From: an uncultured Gammaproteobacteria bacterium
Lineage (GTDB): Bacteria; Patescibacteriota; Microgenomatia; JAMCZE01
Length of the DNA stretch: 58,566 nucleotides
NCBI GenBank assembly: GCA_964431075.1
Contig: CAYSID010000001.1
Span: forward strand, 1 to 58,566
Direction of reading: 5' to 3'
Each line of letters begins with the position of its first letter. Within the stretch, counting starts at the first letter, position 1. The notes beneath the pieces were generated by a model. It made no database searches, was not told the origin of the DNA, and saw only the letters and a list, made by a program, of their open reading frames with translations. This document shows positions 3,522 to 53,209 of this stretch, one piece after another. The position numbers and the translations under genes are program-made.

Positions 3522-4175
3522 TCAGAAACGATCGGTTACCGCATTGCAATAGACATTTTGGACATCGGCGAGATCGCTTAATTTTTCCAAAAACTCACCC
3601 GCCGGAGCTTTGACCATCGTCTCTTTATTAGGCCGGAAAATAAGTTCCGCCGAGATTATCTTCAGGGACTTCGCCAATTCTTCTTTAACGCGATGCAGAT
3701 CTTCCGGTCTGGTGTAAACCGAGCTTCCTTCCACATCCTCGGCGCCAGCTTCCAGCGCTTTCTCAAAAACATTATCCCCCTCAACCTCAATCTCGCCAAG
3801 ACGGGTAAAGAGATAGTCGGTTTTTCCCATCACCCCGCCGTTTTTGGCAAAAAAAGCCTTAATCTCCTGCGAGGTTCTGGTGGTATTGTCGGTTATGGTT
3901 TCGATTATTACCGCGACATTGTTCGGTCCAAACCCTTCAAAAACAGCCCCTACGAGACTCCCCTCCGCTGGCGAGGTGGCGCGATCAATCGCCCGCTGAA
4001 TTTTATCCTTGGGCATGTTCGCTTCACGTGCTTTTTCAATTAAGGCCGCGGGGTTTTGTTGATTTTTGACAGCAATAGTTATGGCGTTAGCCAGTTTAGT
4101 AAAAATTGCCCCTCGTTTGGCATCTGCCGCCCCCTTGGCGTGTTTTATCGTTGACCACTTCGAATGCCCGGACAT
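3522..4175 (-). CDS. yebC: YebC/PmpR family DNA-binding transcriptional regulator
   Basis: 217 aa. Canonical N-terminus MSGHSKWSTIKHAKGAADAKRG..FTKL. Confidence 0.9.
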   Translation of the reverse strand: MSGHSKWSTIKHAKGAADAKRGAIFTKLANAITIAVKNQQNPAALIEKAREANMPKDKIQRAIDRATSPAEGSLVGAVFEGFGPNNVAVIIETITDNTTRTSQEIKAFFAKNGGVMGKTDYLFTRLGEIEVEGDNVFEKALEAGAEDVEGSSVYTRPEDLHRVKEELAKSLKIISAELIFRPNKETMVKAPAGEFLEKLSDLADVQNVYCNAVTDRF

Positions 4176-4217
4176 ACGGCTATTGTAGTTTTAAAGACGA
4201 TCCATTACAATACCGCG

Positions 4218-4976
4218 ATGCAAAGCGACGCCAACAGTGCCATTCGAGCAGCGCTTGACGGCGACTGGGACGAGGCCATTAAACTAAATAAGGAAATATT
4301 AAAAACCACTCCCAACGACCTTGAGGCTCTGAACCGCCTGACCCGATCTTACATCGAAAAAAATCTCAAAAATCAAGCCCTGAAAAGCGTTCGCCAGGCC
4401 CTCAAGATCGATCCGTACAACCAAATCGCCCTTAAATTGAAAGCTAAAATCTCTTCCGGACGATCGGCAAAAATTTCCCGGTTGGAAAACTATGCCACCA
4501 TTTCCGCCTTCATCGAGGAACCGGGCAAAACCCGGTCAGTTGTCCTTATAAACTGCGCCTCGCCCAAAAAAATCGGTTGCGCCGAGTGCGCCCAAGGGCT
4601 GCAGCTTATTCCCAAACGTCACACCGTCCACGTTTGTGACTGTGACGGCAATTATTTAGGAATGCTTCCTGATGATCTGGGAAAACGACTCAATCTTCTT
4701 ATCAAAGGCGGTAACAGTTACCAGTGTTTTGTTAAAACCGTCGGGAGCAAAGACCTGACCGTCTTCATCAGAGAAACCACCCAGGCAAAAAAATACCGGG
4801 ATATCCCGTCGTTTCCGTCAAAGATCTCCATGGATCATATTTCCGACCACGCTGATGAAATTTTGGCGGAAGAAGAAAAGAAGGGGCAAAAAACCAAAAA
4901 AACTGAAGATGAAGAAGACGATGAAGGTCCGCCCTCTTCCAAAACTATTCATCAGGATGAGGAACCCGAAGAATAA
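4218..4976 (+). CDS. TPR-like repeat protein with acidic C-terminal tail
   Basis: The ATG at 4218 is preferred over the ORF-track start, which overlaps yebC. Helical repeat N-terminus (AIRAALDGDWDEAIKLNKEILK..LEALNRL) and an E/D/K-rich tail. Confidence 0.6.
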   Translation: MQSDANSAIRAALDGDWDEAIKLNKEILKTTPNDLEALNRLTRSYIEKNLKNQALKSVRQALKIDPYNQIALKLKAKISSGRSAKISRLENYATISAFIEEPGKTRSVVLINCASPKKIGCAECAQGLQLIPKRHTVHVCDCDGNYLGMLPDDLGKRLNLLIKGGNSYQCFVKTVGSKDLTVFIRETTQAKKYRDIPSFPSKISMDHISDHADEILAEEEKKGQKTKKTEDEEDDEGPPSSKTIHQDEEPEE

Positions 4977-12054: not shown

Positions 12055-12495
12055 ATGACCGCGACCGCTCATGCTTTAGTCGGCGCTGCTATCACTGCTA
12101 AAATTCCTGATCCGGCGCTGGCTTTGTCGGTGGCTTTTGTTTCCCACTTTATTTTTGACAAGCTCCCCCACTGGGACGTGATGACCGAAACCGATCACGG
12201 CAACCACAAAACGATTTTTATTAAATCAACAGCTGATGTTTTAACCGGCTTCGGGCTGGTTTTTTTATTTTTTGGAGCCTCCCCCATAATCTTTTTAGGC
12301 GCTTTTGCTGCCCAATTACCCGATTGGTTAGAGATCCCCTCGCTTCTGGGTTTTAAAAATAAGTACTTTCACTGGAACTACCGGCTTCAACACTGGGTCC
12401 ACGATATTTGGTTTAACTCCCGCCTCAAAGCCCCGTGGGGAATAATCACCCAATTAATTGTTATTCTGATCTTTTTATTCTGGGCGCTGAAGTAG
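12055..12495 (+). CDS. Small membrane protein, possibly a DUF457/YdjM-like metal-dependent hydrolase
   Basis: 146 aa. H-rich N-terminus (AHALVGAA...SHFIFDKLPHWD) and hydrophobic segments. The family assignment is tentative. Confidence 0.5.
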   Translation: MTATAHALVGAAITAKIPDPALALSVAFVSHFIFDKLPHWDVMTETDHGNHKTIFIKSTADVLTGFGLVFLFFGASPIIFLGAFAAQLPDWLEIPSLLGFKNKYFHWNYRLQHWVHDIWFNSRLKAPWGIITQLIVILIFLFWALK

Positions 12496-12511: not shown

Positions 12512-12597
12512 GGCGCGGTGCTGGAATTGGTATACGGGCTGGTCTCAAAAACCAGTGAGGTTAACCCCTCATGAGGGTTCGAGTCCCTCCCGCGCCA
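12512..12597 (+). tRNA. tRNA-Leu (anticodon CAA)
   Basis: Folded by hand. Acceptor GGCGCGG/CCGCGCC plus discriminator A. 3-bp D stem with GAATTGGTATA loop. Anticodon stem CTGGT/ACCAG with loop CTCAAAA. Long variable arm TGAGG-TTAACC-CCTCA. T arm GAGGG-TTCGAGT-CCCTC. CCA is not encoded. Confidence 0.93.
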
Positions 12598-12622
12598 CTT
12601 TTTGTCGACTGTCAATTAGTTG

Positions 12623-12745
12623 TTACGACGCTCTCTTCCCCTCCACCAGATTAAATCTTAATTTATTCCCGGTGAACAGGAAGTTGAACTCGCCGAGGGC
12701 GCCGTTGCGGTGTTTTGCCACCTGTAGGTTAATAGGAATTTTTAT
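12623..12745 (-). pseudogene. Orphan copy of the dnaB 3' end (last ~40 codons plus stop)
   Basis: Minus strand reads KFPINLQVAKHRNGALGEFNFLFTGNKLRFNLVEGKRAS*, against the DnaB tail KIPVNLQVAKHRNGALGEFNFLFTGNKLRFNLVEGKRGS*. 12636..12715 is 80/80 identical to 13504..13583. An upstream in-frame TAA truncates it. Confidence 0.85.
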
Positions 12746-12829
12746 ATGACAATTTTTATATGACAGGGTCAGACCCTGTCACTTATAGTACACGCACAAA
12801 ATTACCCTTGACAGGGTCAGACCCTGACA
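12737..12829 (+). repeat. REP-like hairpins and short direct repeats upstream of the Y1 transposase gene
   Basis: ATTTTTATATGACA occurs twice in tandem. Palindromes TGACAGGGTCAGACCCTGTCA (12761..12781) and TGACAGGGTCAGACCCTGACA (12809..12829) are in the same orientation. Confidence 0.8.
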
Positions 12830-13495
12830 TGTTAAACTAAATTGTGCCGAGAAAAAACTCCAGAAAAATTTATTTTGAGAATGGATTTTACCATGTATAC
12901 AATCGTGGGGTCGAAAAGCGGGAAATTTTTATGGAACCGGCTGACTATGCGTTTTTTCTTCATCTAATTAAAGGGGCTCTGTCCCCACCTGAAAAGCAAA
13001 AACTTTTTGATGAAGGCATTTTTCGTCCACGACGTAAAAATTTCTACGGGAAAATTGATCTTTTATGCTATGTTTTAATGCCAAACCATTTTCATTTCAT
13101 CTTACGTCAAAACGATAAATCAACTATCACTGAATTTATTCGCTCAATTTTGACTTCTTATTCAATGTATTTTAATAAAAAATACGGTCGTGTTGGGGCT
13201 TTATTTCAAGGGGTTTTTAAAGCCATCGATATCCATGAGGAAAATCATCTTTTATGGTTGAGTCGTTATATTCACTTAAATCCAATAAATTTTACAAACT
13301 ACCCTTACTCTTCTTATGATGACTATTTACAAAAGAAAAATACCTCATGGATTAATAAATCGTTAATTTTAGATTATTTTAGCTCTAATCCACTCAAAAA
13401 AAGTAAAAATTATCAGGAGTTTGTCGAGAATAAGAAAAATAATGAAGGCATGGATTTGGAAAATCTCACTCTAGAATCCGATGATCTTGATTAAC
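12746..13495 (+). mobile_element. IS200/IS605-like or REPtron-like cassette (Y1/HUH transposase plus subterminal hairpins) inserted at the dnaB 3' end
   Basis: Bracketed by the two dnaB-tail copies. Contains the hairpins and the transposase ORF. Boundaries are inferred from where the duplicated homology ends. Confidence 0.55.
12844..13494 (+). CDS. Y1 (HUH) transposase, IS200-like / REP-associated tyrosine transposase (RayT-like) family
   Basis: 216 aa, GTG start. FYHVYNRGVEKREIF, HUH motif LMPNHFHFIL, and catalytic-Tyr region WLSRYIHLNP. Its stop overlaps the convergent dnaB stop. Confidence 0.8.
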   Translation: MPRKNSRKIYFENGFYHVYNRGVEKREIFMEPADYAFFLHLIKGALSPPEKQKLFDEGIFRPRRKNFYGKIDLLCYVLMPNHFHFILRQNDKSTITEFIRSILTSYSMYFNKKYGRVGALFQGVFKAIDIHEENHLLWLSRYIHLNPINFTNYPYSSYDDYLQKKNTSWINKSLILDYFSSNPLKKSKNYQEFVENKKNNEGMDLENLTLESDDLD

Positions 13496-14828
13496 TCCCT
13501 CTTTTCCCCTCCACCAGATTAAATCTTAATTTATTCCCGGTGAACAGGAAGTTGAACTCGCCGAGGGCGCCGTTGCGGTGTTTGGCTACTTGCAGATTAA
13601 CGGGGATCTTCCCCGACTGGACTACTGCCGGATCCTCTTCCGCCCGGTACAAAAACATCACTACGTCTGCATCTTGCTCTATACTACCACTCTCGCGAAG
13701 GTCGGCCAATTGGGGAACCTTTTTCTCCCGCGCTTCCACGGCCCTTGAGAGCTGGGAGAGGGCTAAAACCGGAATTTTTAATTCCCGGGCGATGTTCTTA
13801 AGCGATTGAGAAATAATGGATACTTCTTGTACTCGATTATCGAACTTTCGTCCACAATCAACAAGTTGTAAATAATCAACAATCAAAAATTTAAGGTCAT
13901 GTTCTGCTTGCAGACGGCGCGCCTTGGTTCGCATCTCCATAATATTGATCCCGGGGGTATCGTCAATAAATATCGGGGCTTCACTCAGAACTCCCATCGC
14001 CTCCTGCAACTTATCAAAATCCTCATCATCAAGTTTCATGGTTTTAAGTTTCCAGGCATCAATATCCGCCTGCGTTACCAGCAAGCGGTCTCCTAATTCT
14101 TCCTGCGACATTTCCAATGAAAAAATCCCCACCGGCAGTTTTTCTTTGGTGGCAATATGCAGGGCAATGTTTAGAGAAATGGCAGTCTTCCCAACTCCAG
14201 GACGTGATGCTAAAACCAATAGATTGGAATCCTGCATCCCGGCCAGTAAATTATCAAGGTCGCGAAAACCGGTTGCGAGTCCCCGGTAACCTGTCGCTCC
14301 ACGCTTCTGCAGCTCATCAAGCCGGTCAAAACTCTGGGCAAGTATGTCCTTCATGGGGATAAAATTTTTTGCCAAACTTTCCTGGGAAATAGCGAATAAT
14401 TTTTGTTCGGCGCTGTCCAGTACATCTCGCAACTGTCGGGCTTCATCGAACGCCGAATCAGTTATCTCCGCAGCCGTCTTGATGAGAGACCGTTTGGAGG
14501 CGTGGTCTCTGACAATCCGGCCGTACTGCTCGACATGAGCCGCCGTGGGAACTTTATTCACCAAATCAGACAGGTATTCTATTCCGCCAGCTTCCTTAAG
14601 CTTTTTTTGTTCTTTCAACTTTTCCTTGATCGTCACAAGATCAATCGGTTGGCGCTGTTCAAACAGCGCCAACATGGCGGAGTAAATAAGACCATTGGCG
14701 GGATTATAAAAATGTTCCGGGCGCAAGAAGCCGGCCACTTCGACAATGGCATCACGATCCAGCATAACCGCGCCAAGAACCGATGTTTCGGCGTCGGCAG
14801 AATGAGGGGGAATTTTAGTTACAGCCAT
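13491..14828 (-). CDS. dnaB: Replicative DNA helicase DnaB
   Basis: 445 aa. N-terminus PPHSADAETSVLGA, Walker A SRPGVGKTA, Walker B LIVDYLQL, and SQLSR. Confidence 0.93.
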   Translation of the reverse strand: MAVTKIPPHSADAETSVLGAVMLDRDAIVEVAGFLRPEHFYNPANGLIYSAMLALFEQRQPIDLVTIKEKLKEQKKLKEAGGIEYLSDLVNKVPTAAHVEQYGRIVRDHASKRSLIKTAAEITDSAFDEARQLRDVLDSAEQKLFAISQESLAKNFIPMKDILAQSFDRLDELQKRGATGYRGLATGFRDLDNLLAGMQDSNLLVLASRPGVGKTAISLNIALHIATKEKLPVGIFSLEMSQEELGDRLLVTQADIDAWKLKTMKLDDEDFDKLQEAMGVLSEAPIFIDDTPGINIMEMRTKARRLQAEHDLKFLIVDYLQLVDCGRKFDNRVQEVSIISQSLKNIARELKIPVLALSQLSRAVEAREKKVPQLADLRESGSIEQDADVVMFLYRAEEDPAVVQSGKIPVNLQVAKHRNGALGEFNFLFTGNKLRFNLVEGKRGS

Positions 14829-18634: not shown

Positions 18635-18934
18635 GTGAAAGCAAATATTCACCCGCAATATTATTCCGATGCGAAGGTTACTTGCGCTTGCGGGAACACT
18701 TTTACCGTTGGCTCAACAAAACCGACGATTCACGTTGACTTGTGTCATAAATGCCACCCATTCTACACCGGGGTCCAAAAATTTGCCGACACTGAAGGAA
18801 ATATCCAAAAATTTGAGAAAAAACAAAAAGTCGCCGCCGCCAAACAAGCCGTAATAAAAGTTAGAAAAGAGGAAAAAGCCAAGGAGGAATTTCGTCCCAA
18901 AACACTTCGGGAAATGTTATTGGCACAACAGTAG
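18635..18934 (+). CDS. rpmE: 50S ribosomal protein L31
   Basis: 99 aa, GTG start. MKANIHPQYY...C.CG..F...ST....VD.C..CHPFYTG, with a K/E-rich C-terminal extension. Confidence 0.9.
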   Translation: MKANIHPQYYSDAKVTCACGNTFTVGSTKPTIHVDLCHKCHPFYTGVQKFADTEGNIQKFEKKQKVAAAKQAVIKVRKEEKAKEEFRPKTLREMLLAQQ

Positions 18935-18970
18935 TTCATGGTTCATTGTAGAGATCGTTCATAGTAGAAT
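18933..18970 (+). repeat. GTTCATTGTAGAA-family repeat, copy 1
   Basis: AGTTCATGGTTCATTGTAGAGATCGTTCATAGTAGAAT lies immediately after the rpmE stop. It is related to the copies at 19491..19527 (inverted) and 41681..41755. Confidence 0.8.
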
Positions 18971-19327: not shown

Positions 19328-20246
19328 TAATATTCCCGATTATTTAAAAACCCAAATCGACGAAATTGATAAGAAAATTGTTGAGGCTAAATCTTTGCTC
19401 TCTGACCCTGCTTTTGTGGAAATGGCCAACGAAGATGTTAAACGGCTTGAAAACGAGAAAGAACTATTGCTGTTATCTATTAATTCTGCTTCTACTATGA
19501 ACAATGAACGAAATTCTACAATGAACTCTTACGACAATCGCGATTTATTTATAGAAATTCGCGGAGCGGCGGGAGGCGATGAAGCTAAAATCTGGGGAGA
19601 AGATTTACTCAATATGTACTCAAAATATGCTACAACCCAAGGATGGCAAGTCACTCGAGAAGAACCATTAATGATTAAAATTCATGGCCGCGGAGCCTAT
19701 GGAAAATTAAAATACGAATCGGGTGTTCATCGCGTTCAAAGAGTCCCGGTGACGGAATCCTCGGGGCGAATTCACACTTCGACGGCAACGGTCGCTATTA
19801 TCCCCGAACTTGATGATATTGATGTTCAAATCAACCCTGCCGATATTGAAGAACAGTTTTTCCGCTCCGGCGGGAAGGGGGGCCAAAATGTCAATAAAGT
19901 CTCCTCGGCAGTTCGATTGACCCATATCCCAACCGGAACCGTGGTGACTTGTCAGGATGAACGGGATCAGGGAAAAAACCGGACGAAAGCAATGAACCGC
20001 TTGCGGCAAGTATTGTGGGAAAAAGAGCAGGAACGGCAGACGGCGGAGCTGTCAGCCGAACGCCGTGCCCAAATCGGCACCGGGATGCGCAATGAAAAAA
20101 TCCGCACTTATAATTTCCTGCAGGATCGGGTCACCGATCACCGCCTCGACCAAAATTTTCACAATATCCAAAAAATCATGGAGGGTAATATTTCGGAAAT
20201 AATTACCGCCCTCCAAACAAAATTTACTCAAATCGCTCAAAACTAG
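19320..20246 (+). CDS. prfA: Peptide chain release factor 1 (shortened N-terminal domain)
   Basis: 308 aa. RF1-type PVT tripeptide (RVQRVPVTES), GGQ motif (SGGKGGQNVNKV) and IEIRGAAGGDEA. Carries an in-frame repeat insertion at 19491..19527. Confidence 0.9.
   Translation: MSNNIPDYLKTQIDEIDKKIVEAKSLLSDPAFVEMANEDVKRLENEKELLLLSINSASTMNNERNSTMNSYDNRDLFIEIRGAAGGDEAKIWGEDLLNMYSKYATTQGWQVTREEPLMIKIHGRGAYGKLKYESGVHRVQRVPVTESSGRIHTSTATVAIIPELDDIDVQINPADIEEQFFRSGGKGGQNVNKVSSAVRLTHIPTGTVVTCQDERDQGKNRTKAMNRLRQVLWEKEQERQTAELSAERRAQIGTGMRNEKIRTYNFLQDRVTDHRLDQNFHNIQKIMEGNISEIITALQTKFTQIAQN
19491..19527 (-). repeat. GTTCATTGTAGAA-family repeat, copy 2 (inverted, inside the prfA coding sequence)
   Basis: The reverse complement AGTTCATTGTAGAATTTCGTTCATTGTTCATAGTAGA matches copy 3 at 30 of its first 31 positions. 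It is translated in frame as STMNNERNSTMNS. Confidence 0.85.
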
Positions 20247-41680: not shown

Positions 41681-41755
41681 AGTTCATTGTAGAATTACGT
41701 TCATTGTTCATCGTCTCGCGTTCTACCATAAACTATGAACTTCGTCTACTATCAA
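41681..41755 (+). repeat. GTTCATTGTAGAA-family repeat, copy 3 (composite forward plus inverted units)
   Basis: AGTTCATTGTAGAATTACGTTCATTGTTCAT...TTCTACCATAAACTATGAAC TTCGTCTACTATCAAC fills the whole rpsU-yqeY intergenic gap. Confidence 0.8.
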
Positions 41756-42286: not shown

Positions 42287-43543
42287 CTATCCTTTTTCGT
42301 CAACCAGGGCAAGGTGAGGAAAATCAACTAATTTAGTTTCTTTTTCTCCCCGTTTTTTTACTTCAATTTTATCCCCTGTCCTATCAGAAACAACAAGGCG
42401 GTAGGGACAGCCGATTAAATCGGCGTCAGCGAATTTTTCCCCAACAGAGATGTCTCTGTCATCAATTAAAACTTCGACTCCTAAGTCTAATAATTGATTA
42501 TAAATTTTTTCTGTTTTCTCACTAATCCCTAACCCCTGCCTGCCGGCAGGCATGGCCTTCCCGCAAACCCCTATTAGGTGGTATTTAAAGGGAGCAACGC
42601 TTTCCGGCCAAATGATTCCTTTATCGTCATGGAAAACCTCCACCACCGCCCCCATAACCCGTGTGGGACCGATACCGTAAGATCCGAACCAAACCGGTTT
42701 CCTCGTCCCATCGGAGTCGGTAAATACCACCCCCATTTTTTCACTGTAATAAGTCCCGAAACCAAAAATATTACCCACTTCAATTGATGAGACTTTCTTA
42801 TATTTATTTTCATCCCCCTCAAAAATTTCTCTATTAATTCCTAACCCTGTTTGAGGATCGATATAAATAGTGTCTTCCCCCGACGGGGCTTCGACTTGAA
42901 ATTCGTGGGTGTGATTAGTAGTAAACACTCCCCCGCTGGCTTCAGTCACAATGGCCTTTAAACCGATTCTCTCAAAAATTTTTATATAGGCCTGCTTTAC
43001 AGCATTGTAATAATCTGTAAAATCTTCTTCTGTCGCATGCAAACTGTAGAGATCTTTCATCATAAACTCCCGGCCCCGCAAAATCCCCCCGGTTGCCCGA
43101 GGTTCGTTTCTGAATTTTGTGGAAAAATGGTAGATTTTTACCGGCAAATCAAGATGTGATTCCAAGTGTTTGCGCGCCAAGTCTAAAACGATTTCTTCAT
43201 GAGTAAAAGCCAGTCCCAAATCTTTTTCGCGGGAGTCTTTAAGCTGGTACATTATTTCTTTAGCGCTTTCCCATCTACCGGTTTCCTTCCAGATTTCATC
43301 GGGATGCATCAGGGGCATTAAAACCTCTTGCGCGCCGGTGGCATTCATTTCCTCACGGATTATTTGGTTAATTTTATTAACCACCCGCCAACCGAGCGGC
43401 AAAAGGGTCCACGACCCGGCCATGAGCTGATCAATAAAACCAGCACGGACCAGAAGTTGATGGTTCACGGCGACTGCCTCCCTTGGCGTCTCCTTTTTGG
43501 TTTTGGGAAATAACTGGCTTTGCTTCATTTCCTTATTACTCAA
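42287..43543 (-). CDS. proS: Prolyl-tRNA synthetase (short form without INS editing domain)
   Basis: 418 aa. Class II motif 2 FRNEPRATGGILRGREFMMKD, motif 3 GIGPTR, C-terminal anticodon-binding domain. Contains the 16-bp palindrome at 42537..42552. Confidence 0.9.
   Translation of the reverse strand: MSNKEMKQSQLFPKTKKETPREAVAVNHQLLVRAGFIDQLMAGSWTLLPLGWRVVNKINQIIREEMNATGAQEVLMPLMHPDEIWKETGRWESAKEIMYQLKDSREKDLGLAFTHEEIVLDLARKHLESHLDLPVKIYHFSTKFRNEPRATGGILRGREFMMKDLYSLHATEEDFTDYYNAVKQAYIKIFERIGLKAIVTEASGGVFTTNHTHEFQVEAPSGEDTIYIDPQTGLGINREIFEGDENKYKKVSSIEVGNIFGFGTYYSEKMGVVFTDSDGTRKPVWFGSYGIGPTRVMGAVVEVFHDDKGIIWPESVAPFKYHLIGVCGKAMPAGRQGLGISEKTEKIYNQLLDLGVEVLIDDRDISVGEKFADADLIGCPYRLVVSDRTGDKIEVKKRGEKETKLVDFPHLALVDEKG
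42537..42552. repeat. Perfect 16-bp palindrome TGCCTGCCGGCAGGCA inside the proS coding sequence
   Basis: Read directly. Translated on the minus strand as MPAGRQG. A second copy lies at 53088..53103. Confidence 0.9.
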
Positions 43544-52744: not shown

Positions 52745-53209
52745 ATGAAAGTCTCGGCGGGGCTGCTTATGTATCAAAAAGTTCCAGCGGCGGGCAAGGT
52801 GACGGCCCAGGTTTTTCTTGTGCATTTTGGCGGACCGTTTTGGAAAAATAAAGACAACGGTGCTTGGCATATTCCGAAAGGGCTTATTGAACCTGACGAA
52901 AATATATTGGTATGTGCAATACGGGAGTTTTGTGAAGAAACCAGCTTCGAAAGAGGACCTCTTGCGAATTCAATTTTTAGAGATCTTGGATTTGTTGAGT
53001 ATAACAACAAAAAGGTCTATTGTTTCGCTTTCGAAAGCGATCTACCCAAAGACTTTGTTTTTAAAAGTAATAAAATCTCCACAAGGCTGCCTGCCGGCAG
53101 GCAGGGCTGGCCGGAAAATGATCGCGGGCAATTTTTTCCAATTGACGAAGCGATGTTAAAAATCCTCCCCGCGCAAAAAGTGTTTTTGGAGAGATTAGTA
53201 AATTTATAG
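52745..53209 (+). CDS. NUDIX hydrolase (COG4112-like)
   Basis: Start at MKVSAGLLMY. FGGPFW..KD.GAW.IPKG and AIREFCEETSF. Contains the GC palindrome at 53087..53104. Confidence 0.75.
   Translation: MKVSAGLLMYQKVPAAGKVTAQVFLVHFGGPFWKNKDNGAWHIPKGLIEPDENILVCAIREFCEETSFERGPLANSIFRDLGFVEYNNKKVYCFAFESDLPKDFVFKSNKISTRLPAGRQGWPENDRGQFFPIDEAMLKILPAQKVFLERLVNL
53087..53104. repeat. 18-bp palindrome CTGCCTGCCGGCAGGCAG inside the NUDIX coding sequence
   Basis: Read directly. Translated as LPAGRQG. The 16-bp core is identical to the copy in proS. Confidence 0.9.

Follow-up and report, generated by a model that had tools for sequence, protein, structure and literature searches.

We analysed a stretch of DNA of 58,566 nt (the window: contig CAYSID010000001.1 of assembly GCA_964431075.1, positions 1-58,566, forward strand) from an uncultured groundwater-type bacterium of the Candidate Phyla Radiation (CPR), a member of a small clade of Gottesmanbacteria-like CPR bacteria. 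In this window, a gene for a RayT-like transposase of the HUH type with a single catalytic tyrosine (Y1) lies between two copies of the 3′-end of dnaB, the gene for the replicative helicase (Table 1). One copy completes an intact dnaB gene, and the other (the orphan) stands beside a tRNA-Leu gene. The 868-bp unit involved is a REPtron-like cassette, made up of two upstream palindromes and an intact, selected RayT-like HUH-Y1 gene. An earlier note on this DNA, written from the letters of the window, had read the arrangement as the work of an element that carried its own dnaB tail.

Several relatives can be compared at the same locus: L002-L005 carry the cassette, L166 is empty, and L167 has another open reading frame (ORF) in the gap between dnaB and tRNA-Leu; L001 is an independent contig from the Joint Genome Institute (JGI). 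The 146-aa gene to the left adjoins tRNA-Leu also in L002, L005, and L166, and tRNA-Leu (CAA) is found likewise in L002, L004, L005, and L167 and is readable in L166. The L003 contig begins within the gap, so that its tRNA-Leu lies outside the coverage.

Table 1. Features of the dnaB/tRNA-Leu locus, with positions in the window.
Feature	Position	Strand	Sequence or remark	Basis
146-aa gene, left synteny anchor	12055..12495	+	upstream of tRNA-Leu	ORF list; no Pfam match
tRNA-Leu	12512..12598	+	anticodon CAA; convergent with dnaB	ARAGORN
24-nt spacer between tRNA-Leu and orphan stop	12599..12622		TTTTTGTCGACTGTCAATTAGTTG; read as an older right-palindrome remnant	
Orphan dnaB 3′-end	12623..12742	-	39 codons + TAA; no start codon or gene body	
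Identical 80-bp core, orphan copy	12636..12715			exact run measured
Joint of orphan interior end and cassette	12738..12765		14-nt tandem duplication, ATTTTTATATGACA twice	
Hairpin 1	12761..12781		TGACAGGGT-CAG-ACCCTGTCA; perfect 9-bp stem	
Hairpin 2	12809..12829		TGACAGGGT-CAG-ACCCTGACA; one A·A mismatch (imperfect: TGACAGGGTCAGACCCTGACA)	
RayT-like HUH-Y1 gene	12844..13494	+	216 aa; GTG start	Pfam PF01797
Functional dnaB 3′-end	13491..13610	-	the duplicated 40 codons; no right-hand hairpin	
Identical 80-bp core, functional copy	13504..13583			exact run measured
dnaB, replicative helicase	13491..14828	-	445 aa; intact	Pfam DnaB + DnaB_C
Palindrome pattern			TGACAGGGTNNNACCCTG[TA]CA	
dnaB allele-marker sequences			AAAATTCCTATTAACCTACAGGTGGCA; AAAAGAGGGAGTTAA	
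dnaB sequence around codon -40			GGAATTTT/CCCCGA	

Two copies of the dnaB 3′-end

The orphan and the functional dnaB 3′-end align without a gap over 120 nt (40 codons including the stop), and within this alignment a run of 80 nt is identical at all 80 positions, at an offset of 868. Both copies are open frames that end in TAA; the orphan reads ...KIPINLQVAKHRNGALGEFNFLFTGNKLRFNLVEGKRAS before its stop, and the functional copy ...KIPVNLQ...GKRGS. They differ at 14 nt, all of which fall among the 40 positions of the flanks and thus outside the 80-nt core, with the first differences 1 nt beyond the core; such clustering has a P of about 2e-7 under uniformity (3.5e-8 by the Fisher test). Twelve codons differ, 10 of them synonymously (one pair is a three-nucleotide Ser/Ser switch, AGT/TCG), the only amino acid changes are V/I and G/A, and eight of the nine codons in the interior flank differ at the third position, a divergence as large as that between species. 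When 14 substitutions were placed at random in the flanks (n = 100,000), no run gave two or fewer non-synonymous codons. These figures support the conclusion that the two copies bear the signature of two different functional dnaB alleles.

Much of what the earlier note had described here stands: the 80-nt core recurs exactly at the offset of 868, both copies keep a complete C-terminal frame with its own stop (TAA in each), and the simulation agrees with its view that these are the tails of two functional dnaB alleles and not a decaying duplicate. The same is true of the 216-aa HUH-Y1 gene whose stop overlaps that of dnaB, which matches Pfam Y1_Tnp above the cut-off and shares a TTAA with dnaB. 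Other statements need amending. The flank differences are almost all silent, as it had said, and the V/I and G/A changes are real, but its F/I pair is ATC/ATT, which encodes Ile in both copies; the two REP-like (repetitive extragenic palindromic) hairpins are both present, but the second is imperfect, with one mismatch; and the orphan ends 24 nt from tRNA-Leu, not 25.

An old duplication that evolved in place, with gene conversion keeping the centre identical while the edges drifted, would be expected to give a sharp contrast between centre and edge, and the contrast seen (0/80 versus 14/40) is that of edge-limited conversion. However, the edges of an untranslated orphan would drift randomly, whereas 10 of the 12 changed codons are synonymous, an outcome reached by none of the 100,000 simulations, and the duplication is present in no relative. 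In-place decay or concerted evolution is therefore disfavoured (we give it hardly any chance), and it follows that the event was recent and joined two functional alleles.

The identical core also bears on the reliability of the contig, since an assembler could have threaded an uninterrupted chromosome and a separate 868-nt circle (or a second strain) through the shared 80 bp. An exact repeat of this length exceeds the smaller k-mers of metagenome assemblers, and only two contigs of the strain exist. But these two, the 58.6-kb window and the 4316-bp JGI contig L001, are 100% identical over the entire structure, and this independent agreement speaks against the assembly artefact that the earlier note had allowed for. 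In addition, a 150-nt read is longer than the repeat, and so is k=127, the upper limit of k in the JGI pipeline; spanning reads distinguish the two forms, as the flank differences begin directly outside the core. Even an artefact would require a molecule joining dnaB codons -40 to -32 to hairpin 1, and it would not do away with an element that has a dnaB end of its own. We regard an artefact as very unlikely.

The Y1 gene, its palindromes, and the joints of the cassette

No ORF of at least 60 aa other than the Y1 gene lies in the 868 bp, and this gene is present as a single copy in the window; its neighbours are dnaB and two conserved ORFs without Pfam match, and no tyrosine or serine integrase was found in or near the 868 bp in the ORF list or with Pfam. 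Its TAA overlaps the dnaB stop within a TTAA at 13491-13494. The deposited NCBI annotation (P0004) gives a protein of 187 aa; with the GTG start at 12844, the protein has 216 aa and is collinear with all relatives. The protein matches Y1_Tnp (PF01797) with 30.5 bits against a cut-off of 23 (E 4.4e-7), and the RayT equivalog of NCBIfam (NF047646) with 40.8 bits, below the cut-off of 80. The HUH motif (H82 and H84, in NHFH) and the catalytic Tyr142 (in RYIHLNP) are invariant in an alignment of 27 sequences and intact in the window protein. An AlphaFold model of the protein (predicted local distance difference test score, pLDDT, 84.4) was compared by Foldseek with the PDB; the best match is 4ER8, the E. 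coli RayT bound to a REP hairpin (E 9e-7, TM-score to the target 0.66), followed by the TnpA proteins of ISDra2 and IS608. A sequence and profile search of the PDB with the same protein gave no match. Because the protein falls below the NCBIfam RayT cut-off and finds no PDB sequence by profile, it represents a distant RayT-like family; the cassette works like those of the RayT/REPtron kind and probably belongs to them as a remote member.

Purifying selection on the gene is strong: in the comparison of the window with L002, non-synonymous divergence (dN) is 0.048 and synonymous sites are saturated, so that the ratio to synonymous divergence (dN/dS) is far below 1. The GC content of the Y1 gene is about 32% (0.25-0.35 at third positions, GC3) against 45-48% in the adjacent dnaB, in five out of five genomes; although its position is syntenic, the gene thus persists as an island of distinct composition. 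The family is large: of about 5,080 candidates scored, more than 5000 are homologues at E <= 0.001, and the named top matches and the genome loci that we fetched are mostly from Patescibacteria/CPR.

In L002-L005 the order is tRNA-Leu, a small ORF, hairpin 1, hairpin 2, Y1, hairpin 3, and dnaB, and hairpin 3 contains the Y1 stop and leaves 2-8 nt to the dnaB stop. The stem of hairpin 1 recurs in these relatives with lineage-specific loops, and hairpin 2, about 15 nt before the Y1 start, is the family's standard upstream palindrome. The right-hand hairpin (hairpin 3) is missing from the window cassette, where Y1 and dnaB are fused stop-to-stop. Copies of the palindrome outside the cassette number zero both in the 58.6-kb window and in the 12-kb L002 contig, and a search of IMG/VR for a phage vehicle found no Y1 relative, only one stray hairpin match.

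To learn whether duplicated gene ends are common in the family, we fetched 80 more distant Y1 loci from GTDB genomes and compared the flanks on either side of the gene. The only repeats found were terminal palindromes of 36-59 bp. In at least 27 of the 80 loci the gene is bracketed by the same palindrome with perfect stems, the usual unit of the family, and distant extra copies occur within 4 kb in six of these 27 bracketed loci. A gene-end duplication or a dnaB neighbour was found in none of the 80. The closest GTDB Y1 locus (L047 4001-4680, from Blackburnbacteria) has 54% identity and shares the TGACAGGGT stem with the window; it also has a distant extra copy of the hairpin, and its Y1 gene matches in two overlapping pieces and may be frameshifted.

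On the left side of the cassette, the dnaB homology of the orphan stops at 12742/12743, inside the 14-nt tandem duplication. Of the two copies of ATTTTTATATGACA, the first overlaps the dnaB codons AAA ATT, the second continues into hairpin 1, and the junction shows a 5-nt microhomology in addition to the duplication. The joint looks like an illegitimate one of the microhomology type with a templated duplication, unlike a defined transposon end. Beyond the other end of the orphan, the spacer towards tRNA-Leu holds CTGTCA at 12609-12614, followed by 8 nt and then the orphan stop, and this is the layout of the 3′ arm of hairpin 3, an 8-nt spacer, and the dnaB stop in L002 and L003 (a local alignment of the spacer to the L003 junction was equalled by 40 out of 5000 shuffles). 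The half-hairpin and the 8 nt beside the orphan indicate that the orphan is a former functional dnaB end and that a cassette therefore once lay on its tRNA side.

The window also contains repeats of other kinds. A 34-nt ATGAAC-rich motif, ACTATGAACAATGAACGnAATTCTACAATGAACT, occurs three times, at 18934-18967 (reverse strand), 19494-19527 (forward strand), and 41681-41714 (reverse strand); two of these, separated by 22 kb, are inverted relative to each other with 94% identity, and the motif may be an operator or promoter element. A repeat family (D1), CCAAT-periodic over 35 nt, has six loose copies between 24144 and 51319, with 69-80% identity to a reference copy.

The dnaB/tRNA-Leu gap in relatives

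The Y1 proteins of the cassette-bearing relatives share 90% (L002), 87% (L003), 71% (L004), and 69% (L005) identity with that of the window. None of the four has a duplicated dnaB end, and a short-query tblastn search found no decayed remnants of a dnaB tail in relatives; one weak match, in L035, is due to chance and lies in an unrelated protein. We considered whether the small ORFs that separate tRNA-Leu from hairpin 1 form one conserved partner gene; they are mutually unrelated. L005 has, in addition, an unrelated 144-aa ORF between the right hairpin and the dnaB stop (3856-4290). In L003 the dnaB gene is called as two ORFs of 358 and 86 aa (1102-2439) on a low-coverage contig, from either a frameshift or stop or a sequencing error.

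L166 has the closest DnaB (91% identity) and an empty gap, in which the dnaB stop is followed by 9 nt, tRNA-Leu, and the 146-aa gene. One side of it is collinear with the orphan, the tRNA gene, and the 146-aa gene of the window, the other side with the dnaB body; therefore, the locus in the window amounts to an empty-type junction plus an 868-bp insertion that brought a replacement dnaB end. This is the uninterrupted tRNA-Leu/dnaB junction that the earlier note had hoped to see in a relative. The opposite outcome that it had envisaged, with all relatives alike and no empty site, is not what we found, as L166 is empty and L002-L005 carry the cassette without the duplication. L167 (DnaB 83% identical) has an unrelated 118-aa ORF in the gap and no cassette.

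A second palindromic repeat, CTGCCTGCCGGCAGGCAG, is found in the window at 42536-42567 and 53087-53118 and in L167 at 4110-4135. The L167 copy lies within a partial repeat, 31 nt long, of the 5′ portion of tRNA-Leu, beside the real tRNA gene, which suggests another small palindromic insertion element in the clade.

Close Y1 homologues are always at this locus, and five genomes show it in synteny; Y1 relatives that share 62% identity or less are located elsewhere, and the synteny differs in DnaB relatives at 76-77% identity. Among the matches listed for metagenomes, dnaB loci reach at most 63% identity, and none has Y1 directly downstream. One candidate for a split dnaB with an overlap, in a more distant relative (L116 3974-6571), proved to be an ordinary DnaB intein with a homing-endonuclease-like insert, in an ORF of 865 aa.

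L002 and L005 are 96% identical in DnaB and only 69% in Y1, and the Y1 and DnaB phylogenies are discordant. The dnaB genes of the two share an identity of 0.83-0.91 over most of the gene, which drops to 0.67 (0.33 at third positions) in the 25 codons from codon 401, beside the gap. This collapse fits the replacement of a block by homologous recombination, provided that the crossover occurred in the 3′ portion of dnaB; in one of the two lineages, cassette and dnaB end appear to have been exchanged as one. Similarly, the last 25 dnaB codons of the window have third-position identities of 0.68 to L002 and 0.72 to L005, against 0.33-0.54 just upstream, and the body of the gene is closest to L166. 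The gap is a recombination hot spot, the content of which is replaced as a block and may be empty, unrelated small ORFs, or the cassette; the crossovers extend into the final ~60 codons of dnaB, so that its ends move along with the cassettes. The inserted cassette is a regular resident of this gap and not a newcomer.

Origin of the arrangement and its likeness to known systems

We favour, with about an even chance of being right, a one-off aberrant recombination at the hot spot, in which diverged incoming DNA carried a cassette fused stop-to-stop with its own dnaB end. This explanation builds on what the sequences show, namely the duplicated structure with its signature of two alleles, an empty site, a hot spot, and turnover of the cassette; we infer the circle and the order of events. 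The lineage would first have lost an earlier cassette by deletion, leaving the half-palindrome as a scar. DNA from a diverged relative would then have entered, in which the donor cassette, minus its right palindrome, abutted dnaB; it may have come as a circle or looped fragment, closed by the illegitimate microhomology joint that is now at 12742/12743. Campbell-style recombination within the dnaB tail would have integrated it, with the 80-bp core as the tract of exchange or conversion and the synonymously saturated flanks as leftovers of the two parental alleles. The Y1-side copy now completes dnaB, and the orphan is the former dnaB end, stranded beside tRNA-Leu; the event was able to survive because dnaB was intact throughout.

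Several observations weigh against aberrant recombination. The flanks are only about 66% identical, and homologous recombination between such tails would be very inefficient, so the model needs cores that were nearly identical beforehand or an unusual conversion; it is conceivable that both cores were indeed near-identical, as both tails were once linked to cassettes of the same lineage. Four steps have to be assumed (an earlier deletion, the loss of the donor's right hairpin, the closing joint, and the integration), and our searches found no donor allele, circle, or excised form. The DnaB cluster of the strain has a single member, and no KRAS variant is on record. At the nine differing interior sites, L166 agrees with the orphan by 6:3 and L002 with the functional copy by 5:2, which is not significant. 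The parentage of the flanks is ambiguous, and the imported part, as far as can be read from the sequence, would be either the whole functional tail or just its last 13 nt.

The palindromes would also allow a rearrangement within one genome, in which template switching or tandem duplication at palindromes copies the cassette together with the dnaB end. Deletions at hairpins would then remove the first cassette copy and the right hairpin, and later imports of diverged dnaB would alter the functional flanks while sparing an 80-bp patch of the recipient. Every breakpoint does fall within or beside a palindrome (the half right-hairpin next to the tRNA gene, the joint at the flank of hairpin 1, and the missing right hairpin), the half-hairpin, spacer, and tail of the orphan are the exact right end of a first repeat unit, and dnaB is visibly mosaic in the clade. 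Shyamala et al., in 1990, reportedly described REP sequences as join points of tandem duplications. Yet such a history takes at least three to four events and, besides, an import with both edges falling by chance around the same 80 bp, and it leaves the empty site of the closest relative unused; we consider it unlikely.

Another possibility gives the Y1 enzyme an active part. In a read-through (one-ended) transposition catalysed by Y1, a cassette lacking its right hairpin would be cut at a surrogate site, at dnaB codon -40, and a single-stranded circle carrying 120 nt of the dnaB end would re-insert at the same sequence of a cassette-free genome; the functional tail would then be wholly element-borne, the orphan wholly native, and the core homogenised afterwards. 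HUH elements do read through when the 3′ hairpin is deleted (PMC4778049, PMC13181058): when the hairpin was missing, transduction of this kind rose to at least 36% of Helraiser events (PMC4778049), and IS91 undergoes one-ended transposition (PMC13181058). The window cassette is the only one without a right hairpin and also the only one with a transduced-looking flank, its Y1 gene is intact and selected, and the orphan is nearer to the empty-site L166, by 6:3 at nine informative interior sites. Against this, the left boundaries of L002-L005 and of the window have no conserved target motif in common, and at the joint there is, in place of a clean end, the 14-nt tandem duplication that typifies illegitimate joining. 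Read-through is documented for Y2/Rep-helicase elements, and none of the papers that we found has a case for a Y1 enzyme of the IS200/RayT type; REPtrons, moreover, are said not to move as units (PMC6006769). The arrangement was seen once in about 90 loci, and the identical 80-bp core still calls for a second event. On balance the chance of read-through seems slim.

A related proposal regards a minimal HUH-Y1 cassette, of less than 0.9 kb and lacking an integrase, as an integrative island that leaves as a circle with a surrogate dnaB 3′-end and re-enters dnaB by exchange within that end. After losing the right hairpin, Y1 would make the circle by cutting the surrogate dnaB site, the host gene would never be broken, and the 80-bp repeats would allow clean excision. 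Taken as a whole, these parts make a scheme that we think improbable.

The interpretation given in the earlier note is thus retained in part. An incoming unit with its own dnaB tail, an empty site in a relative, and an essential gene kept intact are all supported; site-specific integration is not upheld, and the Y1 cassette is not new to the spot. A new behaviour of Y1 elements, which the note had also suggested, fits less well than a single aberrant recombination at the hot spot. Its remark that the arrangement is unlike known RayT elements agrees with our reading, as we found no mention of such a structure in the RayT papers that we read. The locus is a curiosity at a recombination hot spot, and not a demonstrated new mode of transposition.

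If the arrangement arose as a recombination accident, it shows that a RayT-like cassette and the neighbouring ends of an essential gene are shuffled between genome-reduced CPR lineages, and it provides a clean natural case of an essential gene rescued by an imported 3′-end. If instead Y1 made the intermediate, hairpin-bypass transduction would extend from Y2/Rep-helicase elements to Y1 enzymes, and a sub-kilobase element would have a new way to sit in an essential gene. In addition, the large CPR Y1 family, with its lineage-specific palindromes, is tractable for studying the role of RayT-like enzymes in tiny genomes.

Among known systems, we compared the locus with RayT and its REPtrons (E. 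coli YafM), in which a single-copy Y1 HUH gene stands between its cognate REP palindromes; with these it shares the Y1 HUH fold (4ER8 being the best structural match), the HUH motif, and the catalytic Tyr. The cognate palindromes on both sides of the gene, in L002-L005 and at least 27 of the 80 family loci, are also alike (the window keeps only the two upstream), as are a palindrome that covaries with lineage, a stable syntenic locus, and purifying selection. The window protein differs in scoring below the NCBIfam cut-off, in having no PDB sequence match, and in its length of 216 aa with a C-terminal extension. Its palindrome, TGACAGGGT-NNN-ACCCTGTCA, lacks the GT[AG]G foot (atypical REP classes without this foot have been described; PMC6006769), and there are no dispersed palindromes in 58 kb, only the two beside the gene. 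The missing right palindrome and the position of the unit within a duplicated gene end are further differences.

Elements of the IS200/IS605 group (IS608 and ISDra2), which have a Y1 TnpA and subterminal hairpins and transpose as single strands by 'peel and paste', belong to the same superfamily; hairpins stand at both ends in the relatives, and a circular intermediate would give the observed permutation. Unlike them, the window has no second copy and no tnpB, its protein is about 70 aa longer, and the joint is untidy; those elements insert without target duplication and without host gene ends. No shared cleavage or target motif was found at the cassette boundaries of L002-L005 and the window. 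Islands and prophages that integrate at the 3′-end of a gene or tRNA by means of an integrase have similar direct repeats of the target end (attL and attR), an element-side copy that completes the gene, an empty site (here L166), and an essential gene that is kept. The locus differs in that it has no integrase, an insert of less than 1 kb, and homology that continues beyond the core with synonymous divergence, and in having been seen once.

Finally, 3′ transduction by Helitron, IS91, and ISCR elements resembles the window structure in the lost terminal hairpin and the adjacent host sequence carried along (PMC4778049, PMC13181058). Those elements use Y2 or Rep-helicase enzymes, whereas the window protein has a single Tyr, 216 aa, and no helicase domain, and they occur in many copies with varied 3′-ends, in contrast to the one copy here. 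The structure of the locus, with its right hairpin lost and a dnaB end attached, would be compatible with a catalysed bypass of the hairpin.

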